A stretch of 63,350 nucleotides of DNA, the filler included, from Reclinomonas americana ATCC 50394 (Eukaryota), in assembly GCA_048213135.1 (NCBI GenBank). It is 5 parts of 4 records of this genome, joined end to end, with 100 filler letters (N's around TTAATTAATTAA, not from the genome) between each part and the next. Parts side by side here need not be neighbours in the genome. Positions count along the whole stretch, not along the records: positions 20,628 to 44,004 come from PS015038.1; 4 more parts are not named here. The stretch is one strand, 5' to 3'. Positions within the stretch are counted from its first letter, which is position 1. Each line of letters opens with the position of its first letter. A program made the position numbers and the translations under genes. The notes beneath the pieces were generated by a model. That model did not search any database. It was given only the letters and a program-made list of their open reading frames with translations, and was not told the DNA's origin. Positions 19,901 to 61,532 of this stretch are shown one piece after another.

Positions 19901-20004
19901 CCGAGTCTCTTCTTGAGCGCGTATCCGCGTCCTACTGCAGCCTCCTGTGTCGCCACGTACTTGGCCACAGCGACACTGCGAGAGGCGCCCCCTCTGTCCG
20001 ACAT
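16907..20004 (-). CDS. Ser/Thr protein kinase, CMGC (CDK/MAPK)-like, multi-exon, catalytic loop hidden in gap
   Basis: YALKKRLGDGRNVYGVV (G-loop), CVVKI, LQLIDFGLA, VVTALYRAPEV, VDIFSVGCILAEM and DLIRLMLHAHPSDR. The terminal exons are less certain. Confidence 0.85.
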
Positions 20005-20267
20005 GCTCAGGAGAGAGAGGGAGAGTGCGTGTGGGTGCGCACTGCGCTCTTGCGACACAATCACGACAACAAGATCTTTTTTTGGCTCGCATTCCGGACG
20101 GAGGACATACGCAGTGCAACGTTCACCTCCTCGCCACACAACGCACGCAGCAGCAGGTTGTCCACCTATCGCGTTGCTGCAAGCGCCACTTCAACAACAA
20201 ACAACGTGCATTTCGGAGAAACTTTCCCGCACAGAACGTCGACGTCGCTGGGCGGACATCATTTTGC

Positions 20268-20459
20268 ATGTCGCTCTCACCGCGCAGACGACGAGGCCAC
20301 GCCTCTTCCTCCTCTGCCTCTGCCTCTGTCTCCGATGCATCCTCGCCCCTCTCGGCCACAGAACTCCGCTCTCTGACTGCGACCATTGCCGACATTTGCG
20401 AGGAACTTCCCGAGCATTTGTGTGATCCAATCAGTCACGCGCTCCTCGTGGATCCACTG
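20268..20459 (+). CDS. First exon of a U-box domain protein (fragment at contig end)
   Basis: MSLSPRRRRG...EELPEHLCDPISHALLVDPL followed by donor GTGCGT. P..L.DPIS..L..DP is the start of the U-box signature. Confidence 0.7.
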
Positions 20460-20527
20460 GTGCGTTTTCGCGATCACACGTACAATGAGAAAGAGAGAGA
20501 GAGTATGTGTGACTGTCTTCTCTTGTA

Positions 20528-20627
20528 NNNNNNNNNNNNNNNNNNNNNNNNNNNNNNNNNNNNNNNNNNNNTTAATTAATTAANNNNNNNNNNNNNNNNN
20601 NNNNNNNNNNNNNNNNNNNNNNNNNNN
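20528..20627. other. Artificial contig spacer
   Basis: 44 N + TTAATTAATTAA (stops in all six frames) + 44 N. Confidence 0.97.
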
Positions 20628-23600
20628 GAAAGAGAAGAAGAAAGAGAAGAAGAAGGGAGGAGGCGGTGATGGTGGAGGCAAGCGAGGTGGCGTGGTAGGC
20701 GGAGGGGGACGCGAGTGAGTTTTGACAAACAGCCGATACTCGTCATGCTTGATGTTGTCTAATTTCCGCCATATGATCATGCAGTCGCTTGCCACGTGCC
20801 TCCGACCCGTCTGGCTCCTCTGACCCGCTGCCTGAGAGTCTGAGGTGAGTGCTCTTGGTGCCTCAGTGAGTTGTGCACAGAGCTCCTGATTGAGATCCGC
20901 TGTTCGATTTTTGCTTGCAGCGATGACGCTCCTGCTGATGCCCCAGCCGACCTGACTCTGCACGCGAGCAAGGGGTGAGTGCATGGACGCACAATGTGCG
21001 ACCCTCCTTCTTCGCTCACCACCATGTTGGCCGCAGTGCCGTCAACTACATGCGTCTCTGCCGAGGACTCGATGCCGTGTCATTCGCCCTGCAGAAGCTG
21101 GTTGACAGAAGACTGCCCGAGTTTTGTCTCGAGCATGATGTGGACGTCAGGCACTGGTGGGCGGCGGAGCCTCCTGAGCGGTGCGCTTTCCCCTGGTTGC
21201 TGTTGCTGCTCGGCTGCTGATGTTCACGAAATCTTTTTTGCCAGCCTGTTCGACAACAAGGGGGAGGCACTGTTTCCTCTTGTTGTTAAAAAGTACGCCG
21301 AGTACACCCAGATGATGCAAGCTTGGTACAACAGCTTTGACTTCTGGAAGGAGCACCGCGACACTGCGCGTCGTCCAAGTTCCGCTTCATTCGATGTAAC
21401 CCTCACTGTCGGCATTCTGTTTCAGTGCGGCGTTAACATCGACGGCAAAGTGACGCTCTTGGTTGAAAACCAGAAGGCGGTAAGTAGATGCACTTAGCCT
21501 CGAGCCTGTGGCATGCACTCACCGAGTACGACCACTAGCGAGGCAATCTCGGACTTATTCGCGACGCGCGCAACGACGAAAGCCACAAGGATACTCACAT
21601 CGCCACGGACAGGGAGGTGACCGACCTGCTGGGCGACCTCGACGGGAAGAAACCTGGCCTGTGTATCAGGTGCCTTCGCTCTCTCGACTTGGACGCCGGG
21701 ACGCTGGAGGCTGCCGAAACTATGGTCAAGGAAGCGCGCACTGGTACGTCTATGCAGCAGACCGACATGCCACTATTACAAAACCTGACTGGCTGTGCTC
21801 TCTCATTTGATTGCAGCTCACATCACGTACAACAACTTGGACGAGGAGTTGAAGTGGGTGTGCAGACGCACAGTCGAAGCCGTCTCAAATATCTCTGACG
21901 CCGAGCTTCTGGTGGATCTTCATTGCAAGCCTCACGAGCCCAATGGCACCGAAACGTTGCTACTGACGGAGGTAAACAACAGATTCATGTGCTGCAGTTT
22001 TACTTTGTCTGAGCTCACCAACGTGGACCACCGCGCGCCCAGTTGATGAAGTTCTCCACGAGAGGCCAGCACGAGCGTGTGCTCCTACTTCTTGGGCACA
22101 GTGGCGCTGGCAAGACGACGGCACTCACTCAACTTGCTTGCGCAATGGCGGAGGCGTATCTTAATGCCACCGACAACAAGAGCAGATTGCCGCTTCACGT
22201 GTCGCTGTCGTCGATTCACAATCCGCAAGAACAGCTGCTTGAAAAGGTTCTCGAGCAGCTCGTACCGGCTGTGCGTTGGACGGCCGAGTCGAACGCCGAG
22301 GCTGTGAACACCTTACGCAGGCGTCCTCTACTCATTATTTTGGACGGGTATGAGGAGGTTCATTGCCGCGACAATCTCTTCAAGACGAGTGGGGTACGTG
22401 CGCTGTGTTTATGTTGGGCACTTCTTGCCGACGATATCAATTGTCGTCTTCTTGTCGCAGCTCGCTCTCTGCAACAACGTCAAGGTGATTATTTCCTGCC
22501 GCAAGGACTATGCAAACGGCCTCGCAGGTGGCAAAGTGCGAGTACAACTGGCCGACAACAAGCACAGAAGACAGCGCGACTACTCGGCGCACTTTGCCCC
22601 GGAGCCACTCAGCGGCACTGGAGTGGAACAGAGGCTGGTGGTACGCCGGATCAGGAAGCTTACCGACGGTCAGCTTGACGAGATCAAGACCAATTGGAAG
22701 CAGCAACAGCAACAACGCCGTCCCGACGCTGTCGCTGACGTTGCATTGGTGGATCGCTTGGGTCGGGACGACGATAAGCTGCACAAGCTGCTGCGCAATC
22801 CGTTCATGCTTCGAGTGGCGTTGACGGTGTTGGAGTCGCCGGATGCAGCAACAGCTTTCAAGTCCAAGAGATCGCTGCTCGACAAGTTTCTTCGTAGTTG
22901 GTTCGAGCGCCACTCGGTGACCTGGTCTCGCGATCGTCAGTACTCGGCGCGTGAACCCACGTTGACTGCGTGCCTCATGTTCTGCGAGGGACTGGCCAAG
23001 AGAATGTTCATGTACGATCGCGTTGTGATTCAGCGTGATGCTCCAGCGGCCGACGAAGAGGACATTGCGGCTGTTCTCGACGGTGCTCCGCGCCGGATTG
23101 TCGCCAGCCAGGCACCTCGGCCTGCCAGTCGCGCCGCAAGTGACCAGGACGATGAGTTTGCGGTGTTCTTTGAGCCGCGATTCGAGCACCTGTTGGCCTG
23201 CTGTCCGATTGCTCGGCGTGGCAACTCGTGGGCCTTCCACCACTCCCTGTACCGCTTGCACTGCATCGCCCGTCACGTTTTCGTGTTCGATGAACGCACT
23301 TGGGGGGAGGCAGAACCGTTGACGGTGGAAGAAGTTCGCAGTCACCTGCTCGGCGTGCGACCGCTGAACGACGAGACGCAGCTGTTGGCGCATCTGGCTG
23401 AGGAGGTGTGCACTTCCTCGCGACTGCAGCAGCGGCTGTGGGAGATCATCACGTTGTCCAAGTTCGACAATGACGAGCGAACGGTGACGGCGGCGGCCAA
23501 TGCGGCGACTCTGCTGTGCTATTCGAGTGTGCCGTTCAGTGGCCGTGACTTGCAAGGCGCTCGGCTGCGTGGCGCCGATTTGCGCGACGCCGTCATGCAT

Positions 23601-26105
23601 CGTACCGATCTTTCGCGAGCTGATCTGCGCGAGGTGAACCTCTGCCAGGCGTTTTGTCGTGACGCCAATTTCACGGGTAGCAACATGACTGGTACGCGAC
23701 TCTTGTTGCCGCTGCGAGCTCGAGGTCAAGATGACGGGAGTATCAATGCACTGTGTTTGGCGTACCCGTATCATGCCATCATTAGCGGCGGCGACGACGG
23801 CACTCTGCGTGTGTGGGACGCACAGCACCGCACACTGGTCGAGACCATACGCGATCAGCTTCTCGCAGAGGATGCGAGAGGAGGGCGTAGCAGTGCAATT
23901 CAAGCTGTTGCTTTTGACGTTGTGCACGGCTGCGACACGATTGCGGTTGGCGTTGCCACCGGCAAGAAAAGCAACAGGTTGCAGCGCTCTCTTGTTTTGC
24001 TGTCTCGACCGCACGCTGACGGTGGAGTATGGCAAGAGTCTGCTGACGGTTGGTCACGAGCATCTGCTGATGTTGCAGAATCCGTGTACTCGGTCGCCAT
24101 CTTGTCCAGTGAAGGGATTGTCGCCGCCGGCTTCACCAACAAGATGCGACTGTGGCAGCTGTGTGACGGCGATGGCATTCTTCACGAAAACAAGCCCTTC
24201 CAAACTCTAGATACCGACGGAACGGTGAAAACTGTGGCCTTTTTCAACACCACCTCTGGCGACCACGTGCTTGCTGCCGGAACCAGCCGTGGTGCCATCA
24301 TGCTTTACATGTACGACGACGACACTGGTTTGTTCAGCAAAGCTGGTGGCGTTGCAACTGGCCGCGAAGAAGCCCGGGTTTCGGCCTCCGTGAATTGTAT
24401 TGTTGTCAAGCCGATGCCGATGCTGTCAGCAACAGGAGCACCAGACGCGGGCATCCTCGCACAGCTCATCAGTTGTGGCGACGACAAGATTGTCCGACTC
24501 TGGAACGTGAAGGGCAACGCTGTTGGCGGGCTGCAGCTGGTGGAGGAGCGGCGCTTTGTTGGCTCTGGTCGACCGTTATTCTCTGTGGCCGTGAGCCCCG
24601 ACGGCGAGTTCGTTGTCAGCAGCAACGCCTACAAGACCGTGTACGTGTGGTCGTTGAGCAACGGAAGATTGGCTCGACAGTTCTACGGTCACCATGGCGC
24701 GGTGAAGGCGGTGGTCACTGACGGCGACGGCCACTCATGTTTCAGTGGTGGCGAAGGCGGGGCAATTTTCCGGTGGCCTCTTCCGGCGGCTCGTGACAGT
24801 GTCGGCGCGAGTGATACTGTGAGCGCAGAGGAGATGCGACGTGACGATAAGCTGGCCCGCGGCAAGTCGAAATGCATGATGTGGCCCGCCGGCGGCCAGC
24901 ACTTTTTCTTGGGCGGCTACGACGGTGTTGTTCGTGAGGTCTGCGTTGCGGATGGCCGACTGCAGCATCAGTTTGTACCGCCCACCGAACGGCTCAGGGC
25001 AGTGCACGAGATGCTGTGGGTGCCGACACCAAGTGCCGCCTGTGACGGCCTATTGGTGACGGGTGGTTACGACAGATTTATTCGAGTGTGGGAACTTGAA
25101 CGTGGCGCGCCCGACTACCGCCTCGTGCGAACAATGACCGGTCACAGCGACTACGTGATGACGCTGGCAATGGCACACGACGATCGCGGAATCGGTATTA
25201 TCAGCTGCAGCATCGATGGAACCGTTCGGCGCTGGTCACTGGCTACTGGAGACCAAGAATGGTGCTTCAATAACCCACGTCCATCGTCCAAGAGAGAAGG
25301 ACAACCGGCGGCGTATCACACGTTGGTGGTCGATCCGTATGAAGAGCACGTGATTTGTGCCGACGGACAAGGGTTTGTTGACGTCGTTCGACTGGTCGAC
25401 GGGGAAGCGGTCGGTGGATGGCAGGCGTTGGAGGGCGAGATCAAGTCGATTCTCCTGGACGGTGGCCGTGGAAATCGGCGACTGCTGACTGGTGGCGCAG
25501 ATTCCGCGATTCGAGTGTGGGAGTGGCCATTGCCTGGCAGTGGTGACGCGCCAACACTGCTGCTCTCACTCCCCGGCTTCACGCAGCGCGTGGTGGCCAT
25601 GCATCTGATACCGGAGGGGGCTAGCGATGGCTCTCGATCGCGCTTCCTGGTGTGCGCCAGTGGCTGTGCTGTGCAAGTGTGGTCGATTGAGGACGATGTC
25701 GTAGATGGCCAGCGACTCCTCTACTCGCTGAATGATGCACACTCGTCGCTGATATACGACATTGCGTTGTCGAGCGACGGCCGTCACGTTATCAGCGTGG
25801 GCGCCGACAGTGCCATCCGCGTGTGGGAACTGCCGGCTGACGCTGCACGGCTGCGGTACGTGCACGTGTTGATGCTGTCCTTTCCCTGCCTTATTTCACT
25901 GACACCGCCGATGTTACACATGTGCAGACACGGCAAGCACGTGCTGCTGCAGAAGACGTTTGGCATGTTCGACTGCTACTTTGCGGGCTGTCGTGTCGAC
26001 GGCGTCCGTGGACTCGACGACGCAACAATGGACTGGTTCCGTCAGACCGCAGCATGCGAGAGTTCCACTGTCGTTGTGCCAATGTGGAGCTATCCTTCGC
26101 CGTGA
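20628..26105 (+). CDS. NLR-like STAND protein: HEPN (DZIP3-like) - NACHT - pentapeptide repeat - WD40; 5' end missing
   Basis: Exons 20628-20714, 20785-20844, 20921-20974, 21037-21180, 21245-21479, 21539-21743, 21817-21971, 22043-22393, 22461-25855 and 25928-26105 splice in one frame. Walker A GHSGAGKT (22094), Walker B LIILDGYEE, VIISCR, LRNPFML and WAFHHS; pentapeptides DLQGARLRGADLRDAVMHRTDLSRADL; multiple GH...D..I.VW WD40 repeats; HEPN-like RNDESH at 21569-21586. Confidence 0.88.
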
Positions 26106-44004: not shown

Positions 44005-44104
44005 NNNNNNNNNNNNNNNNNNNNNNNNNNNNNNNNNNNNNNNNNNNNTTAATTAATTAANNNNNNNNNNNNNNNNNNNNNNNNNNNNNNNNNNNNNNNN
44101 NNNN
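44005..44104. other. Artificial contig spacer
   Basis: 44 N + TTAATTAATTAA + 44 N. Confidence 0.97.
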
Positions 44105-61432: not shown

Positions 61433-61532
61433 NNNNNNNNNNNNNNNNNNNNNNNNNNNNNNNNNNNNNNNNNNNNTTAATTAATTAANNNNNNNNNNNN
61501 NNNNNNNNNNNNNNNNNNNNNNNNNNNNNNNN
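61433..61532. other. Artificial contig spacer
   Basis: 44 N + TTAATTAATTAA + 44 N. Confidence 0.97.

Follow-up and report, generated by a model that had tools for sequence, protein, structure and literature searches.

The question raised by this locus is whether a protist carries a NOD-like receptor (NLR) armed with a ribonuclease (RNase). The locus occupies positions 20628-26105 of a 63,350-nucleotide stretch of DNA from Reclinomonas americana ATCC 50394 (assembly GCA_048213135.1); this whole stretch is called the window below. An earlier note, made from the sequence alone, proposed that ten exons splice here into a HEPN RNase effector fused to a NACHT-pentapeptide-WD40 sensor. The present analysis indicates that 20628-26105 is probably one 5'-incomplete ten-exon eukaryotic gene, which encodes an NLR-like protein of the STAND (signal transduction ATPases with numerous domains) class. 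The N-terminal part of the protein, hereafter the head, is very likely a HEPN-type domain related to the Pfam family HEPN_DZIP3 (PF18738).

The ten-exon frame and the intron-split motif

Joining the ten exons (Table 1) gave a single frame of 1620 codons on the + strand with its sole stop at 26103-26105, as the earlier note had read it, whereas the other two frames of the joined exons contain 57 and 41 stops. All nine introns are GT..AG and 59-76 nt long. The exon structure is thereby established on sequence grounds. The spliced frame is open at the 5' contig edge, position 20628 being the first base after a linker, and its first Met is residue 72, which lies within the head. The gene is thus 5'-incomplete. 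The predicted gene is presumably expressed, and the splice signals, together with the homology described below, suggest that the head and the body are joined in the mRNA. The peptides that had been quoted from the region upstream of the Walker A motif are present as written.

The candidate catalytic motif of the head is RNDESH. It has the R-x4-6-H form of the HEPN superfamily, with the N that usually follows the R, and is the only R-x4-6-H within the first 300 residues of the spliced protein. RNDESH (21569-21586) lies in a stop-to-stop frame, 21539-21898, which opens just after the TAG that holds the acceptor AG, and no ATG, GTG or TTG is found upstream of the motif in this frame. Since the frame has no start before the motif, RNDESH can be reached only through removal of intron 21480-21538, and the earlier claim that it is hidden by this intron is therefore correct.

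The HEPN_DZIP3 family as a reference

Members of the HEPN_DZIP3 family were gathered by scanning metagenome contigs with a back-translated 12-residue motif of the family. The scan yielded at least 120 loci, and the full family pattern was present in at least 105 among the 120 matches listed. Pfam assigned the tested translations to PF18738 in 20 of 20 and then in 30 of 30 cases, with E values down to 4e-64. The 30 verified members carry an NYxRLCRxL helix, an SS.xFD[IV]TL block and RN-x3/4-H in this order, so the order that the earlier note had given for the DZIP3-type domain (NY.RL..L / S..FDITL / RN...H) is real. RN-x4-H was found in 90 of 107 metagenome family members among the matches listed. 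In one metagenome contig (L012:51-1250), a single frame without interruption encodes HEPN_DZIP3 at 45-185 and then NPHP3_N/NACHT from 262, an example of the invertebrate-type HEPN-NACHT fusion.

All PF18738 members examined have a conserved first helix, TNYARLCRLLVDVG, upstream of the start of the Pfam model. In member 1, the PF18738 match (36-180) begins at residue 36, downstream of this helix. The first helix, for example in L001:156-695 (residues 5-32 of the model), folds within the domain with a predicted local distance difference test (pLDDT) score of ~95. The PF18738 model may be one helix short, which would make it less able to detect divergent members. Folded with a 30-sequence alignment, one family member was all-alpha (pLDDT 90.2). 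With an exhaustive structural aligner, the top two matches of this model were Csm6 HEPN domains (Z 7.9 and 6.7), and about 12 of the 50 structural matches listed were HEPN-type, including AbiF, sacsin, 1wwp, 2hsb, Swt1, MtlR/YggD, HepS and a third Csm6.

Comparison of the spliced head with HEPN_DZIP3

A full-length profile built from 30 non-redundant PF18738 members was compared with the spliced head (exons 4-6, ~195 residues). Exon 4 reads AVNYMRLCRGLDAV where the family has its first helix, and the spliced head carries NYMRLCRGL, SSASFDVTL and RNDESH in the family order. By hmmsearch, the profile matched the head in two blocks in family order with 8.8 bits (E 6.5e-5 at Z=1), a score reached by none of 2000 shuffled sequences (maximum 5.6). 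By hhalign, the spliced head scored 36.7 (E 4e-5) over 173 columns, that is, over the whole domain, and the R and N of RNDESH were placed on the family RN and the H on the family H with one gap. This score was reached neither by 150 shuffles (maximum 20.6, z 9.4) nor by 119 natural control segments of 206 residues (maximum 19.5). The reversed query scored 18.4, and two unrelated alignments gave 15.7 and 15.1 with the spliced head. When the exons were aligned one by one with hhalign, exon 4 fell on columns 18-46 (E 0.0017), exon 5 on columns 79-98 (E 0.0013) and exon 6 on columns 156-183 (E 0.35), so that the three exons followed the family order. Exons 4 and 5 ranked second and third among the 779 open reading frames (ORFs) of the window against the family profile.

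The nearest neighbors of exon 6 in the Atlas, which is based on a protein language model, were clusters of Csm6 HEPN, Cas02710, DUF4145 and Ymh, with scores of 0.77-0.82. All four of these named family sets are HEPN-type. The scores fall below the Atlas line of 0.9, and the neighbors are thus taken as a lead only.

Several results weigh against a relationship of the head to HEPN_DZIP3. The 8.8 bits obtained by hmmsearch are far under the Pfam gathering cut-off of 27 bits for PF18738, and the hhalign probability was 70%, not above 90%. Exon 6, which is the catalytic one, has by itself no significant similarity to the family (-1.5 bits, besides the E value of 0.35), and the alignment requires insertions of 14 and 10 residues in the head. 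The reference profile represents a narrow clade (effective sequence number 1.19) that was selected via one of the motifs under test. A first, shorter profile, which lacked the N-terminal helix and started 62 residues before FDITL, matched only that block. With this profile, the head scored 3.7 bits (10 of 2000 shuffles were higher) and 24.2 by hhalign (1 of 200 shuffles was as high), and in a global alignment 151 of 200 shuffles were as high. Searched singly, exons 4, 5 and 6 matched no Pfam family at E<=1; exon 4 is unable to score against PF18738 because the model starts past the first helix of the family. Exons 5 and 6 matched no PDB chain at E<=10 by phmmer, and PADLOC and NCBIfam searches with single exons returned P-loop noise and sub-threshold matches only. 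Word-based homolog searches found nothing for exon 6 at E<=0.01 among 273 candidates and nothing for exon 5 at E<=10 among 81 candidates, and the Atlas feature neighbors of exon 5 included no usable match. As for the family fold itself, Foldseek found nothing in the PDB at E<=0.001 for the family model, and all of its structural matches had Z below 8, which is middling for helical folds.

We conclude that the profile-level homology between the head and PF18738 is moderate and not decisive. The HEPN assignment made in the earlier note is supported at this level for the spliced head as a whole, which scores above all controls with R, N and H aligned, and finds no support in Pfam exon by exon. 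These comparisons favor the view that the head is a highly divergent member or a sister of the DZIP3/hRUL138-type HEPN family with an intact R-N-x3-H.

Descent from this family would also be compatible with a head that is not a nuclease and acts instead as an RNA-binding or protein-docking adaptor that signals by recruitment. Such a head would agree with the extreme divergence (8.8 bits) and with the dissimilarity of the catalytic exon alone. It would also agree with the lack of RN-x3/4-H in 13 of the 107 metagenome family members among the matches listed, and with the description of motif-less HEPN domains as non-catalytic RNA binders in PMC3710099. We nevertheless regard a non-nuclease head as unlikely. 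R, N and H are all present and coincide in the alignment with the motif of the family. An R-x4-H in which N follows R is typical (PMC3710099, PMC9646362), and among oyster HEPN_DZIP3 proteins no motif is commoner than R-x4-H (131 of 202, usually with N after R; PMC9646362).

A chance resemblance, in which an unrelated helical effector or regulatory domain carries a fortuitous RNxxxH, would account for the single exons without a match in Pfam, PADLOC, NCBIfam or PDB, for the lack of sequence homologs, and for the noise-level results with the first profile. The heads found on this type of body are also diverse (kinase, ARM-like or unknown; see below). Such a coincidence is rather improbable in view of three blocks in the family order with the right spacing, of scores that no shuffle, natural control or unrelated alignment reached, and of the HEPN families among the Atlas neighbors of the RNDESH exon. 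A divergent HEPN_DZIP3-like domain remains our preferred identification of the head.

The NACHT-pentapeptide-WD40 body and its relatives

On architecture, the earlier note was largely right, and the domains that it had named downstream of the head were all recovered by Pfam above the cut-offs. NACHT (PF05729) was detected in single exons with 1e-10 and 42.1 bits (cut-off 26.7), Pentapeptide (PF00805) in two stretches with 50.4 bits (cut-off 20.2), and WD40 (PF00400) with 118.8 bits (cut-off 27). Walker A (GHSGAGKTT), Walker B (LLIILDGYEE) and VIISCR are all intact in the NACHT domain. VIISCR is taken here to be the NACHT sensor arginine motif.

The helical arm between NACHT and the pentapeptide repeats is rare. 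In a phmmer search against 1.84 billion representative proteins, only four proteins matched the arm at E<=0.001 (best 5e-9). Each of the four is a metagenome ORF without interruption, 954-1610 residues in length, and pentapeptide and WD40 repeats follow the matched region in three of them. One of the four, a metagenome protein of 1610 residues (P0080), has a Tyr/Ser-Thr protein kinase head (PF07714, 8e-51) on this body. The protein P0079 reads caspase-NACHT-pentapeptide-WD40. Judged from these architectures, heads are freely swapped on the NACHT-pentapeptide-WD40 body. By blastp, the spliced protein matched the protein P0082 with 1e-39 across NACHT, arm and pentapeptide segment. A word-based search with the arm piece gave 79 matches, all due to its pentapeptide part, and the PADLOC models gave no meaningful match to the head or the arm. 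An AlphaFold model of a 413-residue piece containing the arm and the pentapeptide segment (5 sequences) had a pLDDT of 57.1 and was too poor for use.

Bacterial relatives were sought with an arm alignment and the pattern TAA[AT]N..T[IL]L in one genome per prokaryotic species. The scan gave 10 loci, six of them in metagenome-assembled genomes (MAGs) of Mycoavidus cysteinexigens. One locus each was found in an uncultured gammaproteobacterium, a Legionellaceae MAG (from Naegleria), a Chlamydiae MAG, a Bdellovibrionales MAG and a Myxococcota MAG. When the spliced protein was compared over its full length, blastp matched two Mycoavidus MAG ORFs with 2e-60 and 8e-56 over ~1300 residues, from NACHT to WD40, and the identity to Mycoavidus-type relatives was 22-29%. 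The pre-P-loop, arm and tail motifs are common to the gene and the bacterial-type relatives, and the tail motif of exon 10, GVRGLDDATMDWFRQ, is also present at the extreme C-termini of two of these relatives (L121, L122) and of the kinase-headed P0080. Homology to the uninterrupted Mycoavidus MAG ORFs starts in exon 7 and continues unbroken across the exon 7/8 junction. Since exon 7 contains no ATG, the body needs upstream exons. This continuity and the C-terminal tail motif support the gene model.

That head and NACHT body do not form one product is quite improbable, whether the locus holds a pair of genes (one for a small HEPN protein, the other for a NACHT-WD40 protein that lacks a head) or is an unexpressed or decaying copy. 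In favor of such a reading, retention of intron 21972-22042 gives a TGA (22044-22046) that overlaps an ATG (22046-22048) opening the NACHT exon, another ATG precedes the end of exon 6 by 8 codons, and oysters commonly have HEPN_DZIP3 proteins that lack NACHT (PMC9646362). Against it, the homology to bacterial ORFs spans exon 7/8 and starts in the ATG-less exon 7, and nine standard introns keep one frame of 1620 codons with no internal stop. Moreover, if HEPN were encoded by a gene of its own, this gene and the NACHT gene would overlap on the same strand.

The body and the head of this single gene appear to differ in ancestry. The N-terminal half of NACHT matched the bacterial-type relatives with 1e-14 to 1e-16, whereas its best E value against 13 stretches that follow HEPN_DZIP3 in metagenome contigs was 0.069; orthology with the animal lineage is thus not indicated by these 13 stretches. 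The gene was also considered as an ortholog of the invertebrate HEPN-NLRs, and this was rejected because its NACHT is unlike the post-HEPN NACHT domains. The heads of the bacterial-type relatives (L121-L130) vary; L123 and L128 carry ARM_5 (PF23948, ARM-like), and L122, L125 and L126 a conserved head of unknown type. The HEPN_DZIP3 profile scored in none of 12 body relatives. A body-type NACHT and the non-HEPN heads of the relatives point to an independent fusion of a DZIP3-type head with a NACHT-pentapeptide-repeat (PPR)-WD40 body. The gene thus looks like a combination of a head of one ancestry with a body of another. By homology and domain order, the body is of the NACHT-PPR-WD40 receptor type of Mortierellomycota, their Mycoavidus endosymbionts and other intracellular bacteria.

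Comparison with known systems

RNase L and Ire1 are activated by dimerisation. They carry a KEN-type HEPN and resemble the present gene product in principle, in that sensor-driven self-association switches on an RNase. This is an analogy only, as they have a different HEPN family and different sensors and no STAND nucleoside triphosphatase. Fungal HET-E and NWD proteins have NACHT followed by WD40 repeats and a swappable N-terminal effector. They share NACHT and WD40 with the present protein, but lack a pentapeptide segment, and no HET-E or NWD-type fungal protein is among the four phmmer matches to the arm. PMC3710099 counts the KEN domain of RNase L and Ire1 among the HEPN domains.

The invertebrate HEPN (PF18738)-NACHT proteins of cnidarians, oysters and amphioxus are closest in the N-terminal arrangement: a HEPN domain with RN...H, a linker of ~70-80 residues and NACHT, with the same predicted role as an RNase effector on an NLR. 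Table 1 of PMC3710099 lists fusions of the DZIP3/hRUL138 HEPN to NACHT and other domains in animals, and expansions of the DZIP3-type HEPN in Nematostella, oyster and the protist Capsaspora. More than 50 HEPN_DZIP3-NACHT genes are reported for a pearl oyster, and WD40 or TPR occurs at the C-terminus of some oyster NACHT proteins (PMC9646362). The present gene differs from these proteins in that its head, taken exon by exon, stays below the Pfam threshold, has R-x4-H where most of the metagenome members listed have RN-x4-H, and needs two insertions, and in that its NACHT is dissimilar (E 0.069 at best, 13 compared), so that it looks like an independent fusion.

For the body, the nearest described proteins are the NACHT-PPR-WD40 NLRs of Mortierellomycota and Mycoavidus cysteinexigens (PMC11291939), and the published eukaryotic relatives of the body are fungi. 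The order of NACHT, arm, pentapeptide segment, WD40 and C-terminal tail is the same, and the Mycoavidus MAG ORFs show whole-length homology with conservation of the TAAAN..T[IL]L arm motif and the tail motif. In contrast, the heads of the relatives are ARM-like (PF23948), Tyr/Ser-Thr kinase or unknown, and 0 of 12 scored with the HEPN_DZIP3 profile. The fungal proteins were compared by their published architecture, and sequence homology was measured against the bacterial members.

Bacterial NACHT and other STAND antiphage proteins follow the same effector-NACHT-repeat logic. PMC3710099 lists bacterial HEPN-STAND fusions, and in bioRxiv 10.1101/2022.07.19.500537 the effectors of bacterial NACHT proteins include HEPN and the sensors include pentapeptide and beta-propeller repeats. 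The HEPN heads of these proteins belong to other HEPN families and are encoded by prokaryotic genes. The word HEPN is absent from the main text of a survey of fungal NLRs (PMC9815663; supplements outside the scope). In the literature covered on HEPN, DZIP3, NACHT and the NLRs of fungi and unicellular organisms, no HEPN head on a NACHT-pentapeptide-WD40 body was found, the supplements of PMC9815663 and PMC11291939 being outside the scope. The earlier note had presented the four-part architecture as one not known from a protist. The particular combination does appear to be undescribed, but that claim was overstated, because HEPN_DZIP3-NACHT, NACHT-PPR-WD40 and bacterial HEPN-NACHT proteins, and with them the modules and the design principle, have already been published. 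Novelty is thus limited to the combination of a HEPN head with a NACHT-pentapeptide-WD40 body and its chimeric origin, which appear to be new, both module types being known.

A possible mode of action

By analogy with known STAND proteins and HEPN RNases, the WD40 and pentapeptide repeats would hold the protein off until a ligand is bound. NACHT would then exchange its nucleotide and oligomerise, and the heads would be brought together and pair, so that R204, N205 and H209 could form a composite metal-independent RNase site. Cleavage of RNA, either of the cell or of an invader, might lead to the arrest or death of the cell or to the destruction of the invader RNA. Ligand-driven oligomerisation, RNase activity and an immune or suicide role are all drawn from those better-known proteins. 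Nonetheless, the complete explanation, including an active RNase head, seems to us the probable one.

Features of the gene and the surrounding window

The coordinates of the gene are collected in Table 1. The TGATG overlap at 22044-22048, at which the head frame stops if intron 21972-22042 is retained, is either a coincidence or may reflect a retained-intron isoform that gives a head-only protein.

Table 1. Exons, motifs and domain segments of the gene at 20628-26105, in window coordinates
Feature	Position	Strand	Description
Exon 1	20628..20714	+	K/E/G-rich low-complexity coding, open at the contig edge; donor GTGAGT at 20715
Exon 2	20785..20844	+	S/P/D-rich linker; acceptor CAG, donor GTGAGT
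Exon 3	20921..20974	+	A/P/D-rich linker into the head
Exon 4	21037..21180	+	First helix of the HEPN_DZIP3-like head; NYMRLCRGL at 21044-21070
Exon 5	21245..21479	+	Middle of the head; SSASFDVTL at 21378-21404
Exon 6	21539..21743	+	C-terminal part of the head; candidate catalytic motif
RNDESH	21569..21586	+	R-x4-H, N after R; residues 204-209 of the ten-exon model
Exon 7	21817..21971	+	Pre-P-loop linker of the NACHT body; without ATG
Exon 8	22043..22393	+	NACHT N-half; Walker A GHSGAGKTT 22094-22120; Walker B LLIILDGYEE 22328-22357
Exon 9, in full	22461..25855	+	
Exon 9, first part	22461..23534	+	NACHT C-half (VIISCR 22485-22502) and helical arm ending TAAANAATLL (23487-23516)
Pentapeptide-repeat segment	23535..23702	+	Pfam PF00805, 1.6e-13, 50.4 bits
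WD40 beta-propeller region	23736..25855	+	~700 residues; Pfam WD40 5.2e-35 and many beta-propeller families
Exon 10	25928..26105	+	C-terminal tail, conserved motif GVRGLDDATMDWFRQ at 26001-26045, stop codon

A linker of the form N44-TTAATTAATTAA-N44, which contains stop codons in all six frames, occurs four times in the window (20528-20627, 44005-44104, 53018-53117 and 61433-61532). The window thus consists of contigs joined in a chain, and genes that a linker separates are not necessarily neighbors. On the contig that precedes the gene, the frame 19917-20526 ends with LPEHLCDPISHALLVDPLV at 20400-20490 (+). This segment resembles the core of a U-box, although Pfam gave no match for the ORF at E<=0.001. 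The other genes of the window are ordinary eukaryotic ones, namely APC5, Vps10/sortilin, Snf7 and coiled-coil proteins. Rfam and tRNA scans of the window found no rRNA, tRNA or other RNA markers, and no paralog was found within the window.

Implications

It is possible, although we propose it only tentatively, that a non-animal microbial eukaryote arrived independently at an NLR armed with an RNase, in which a DZIP3-type HEPN was joined to a NACHT-pentapeptide-WD40 body. If this is true, the gene is a chimaera that draws on two evolutionary sources and reproduces the HEPN-NLR design of invertebrates by convergence, and its body is of a kind that fungi or amoebae exchange with their intracellular bacteria. 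It would then be a concrete example of domains that were shuffled once host and endosymbiont had exchanged genes. If the head is a non-nuclease or its exons are not joined to the body, the gene is merely another NACHT-WD40 gene.

For the family, it would follow that the annotated range of the DZIP3-type HEPN, mainly animals with an expansion in Capsaspora, understates its age or its mobility, and that the Pfam model misses the most divergent HEPN_DZIP3 members as well as the first helix. The gene would also exemplify an effector head that escapes standard domain annotation owing to its great divergence and to the introns that divide it. HEPN-headed NLRs have been described in corals, oysters and amphioxus, their function having been shown by nobody. 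A version from a microbial eukaryote with a small genome would be a more tractable test of whether NLR oligomerisation switches on a HEPN RNase.

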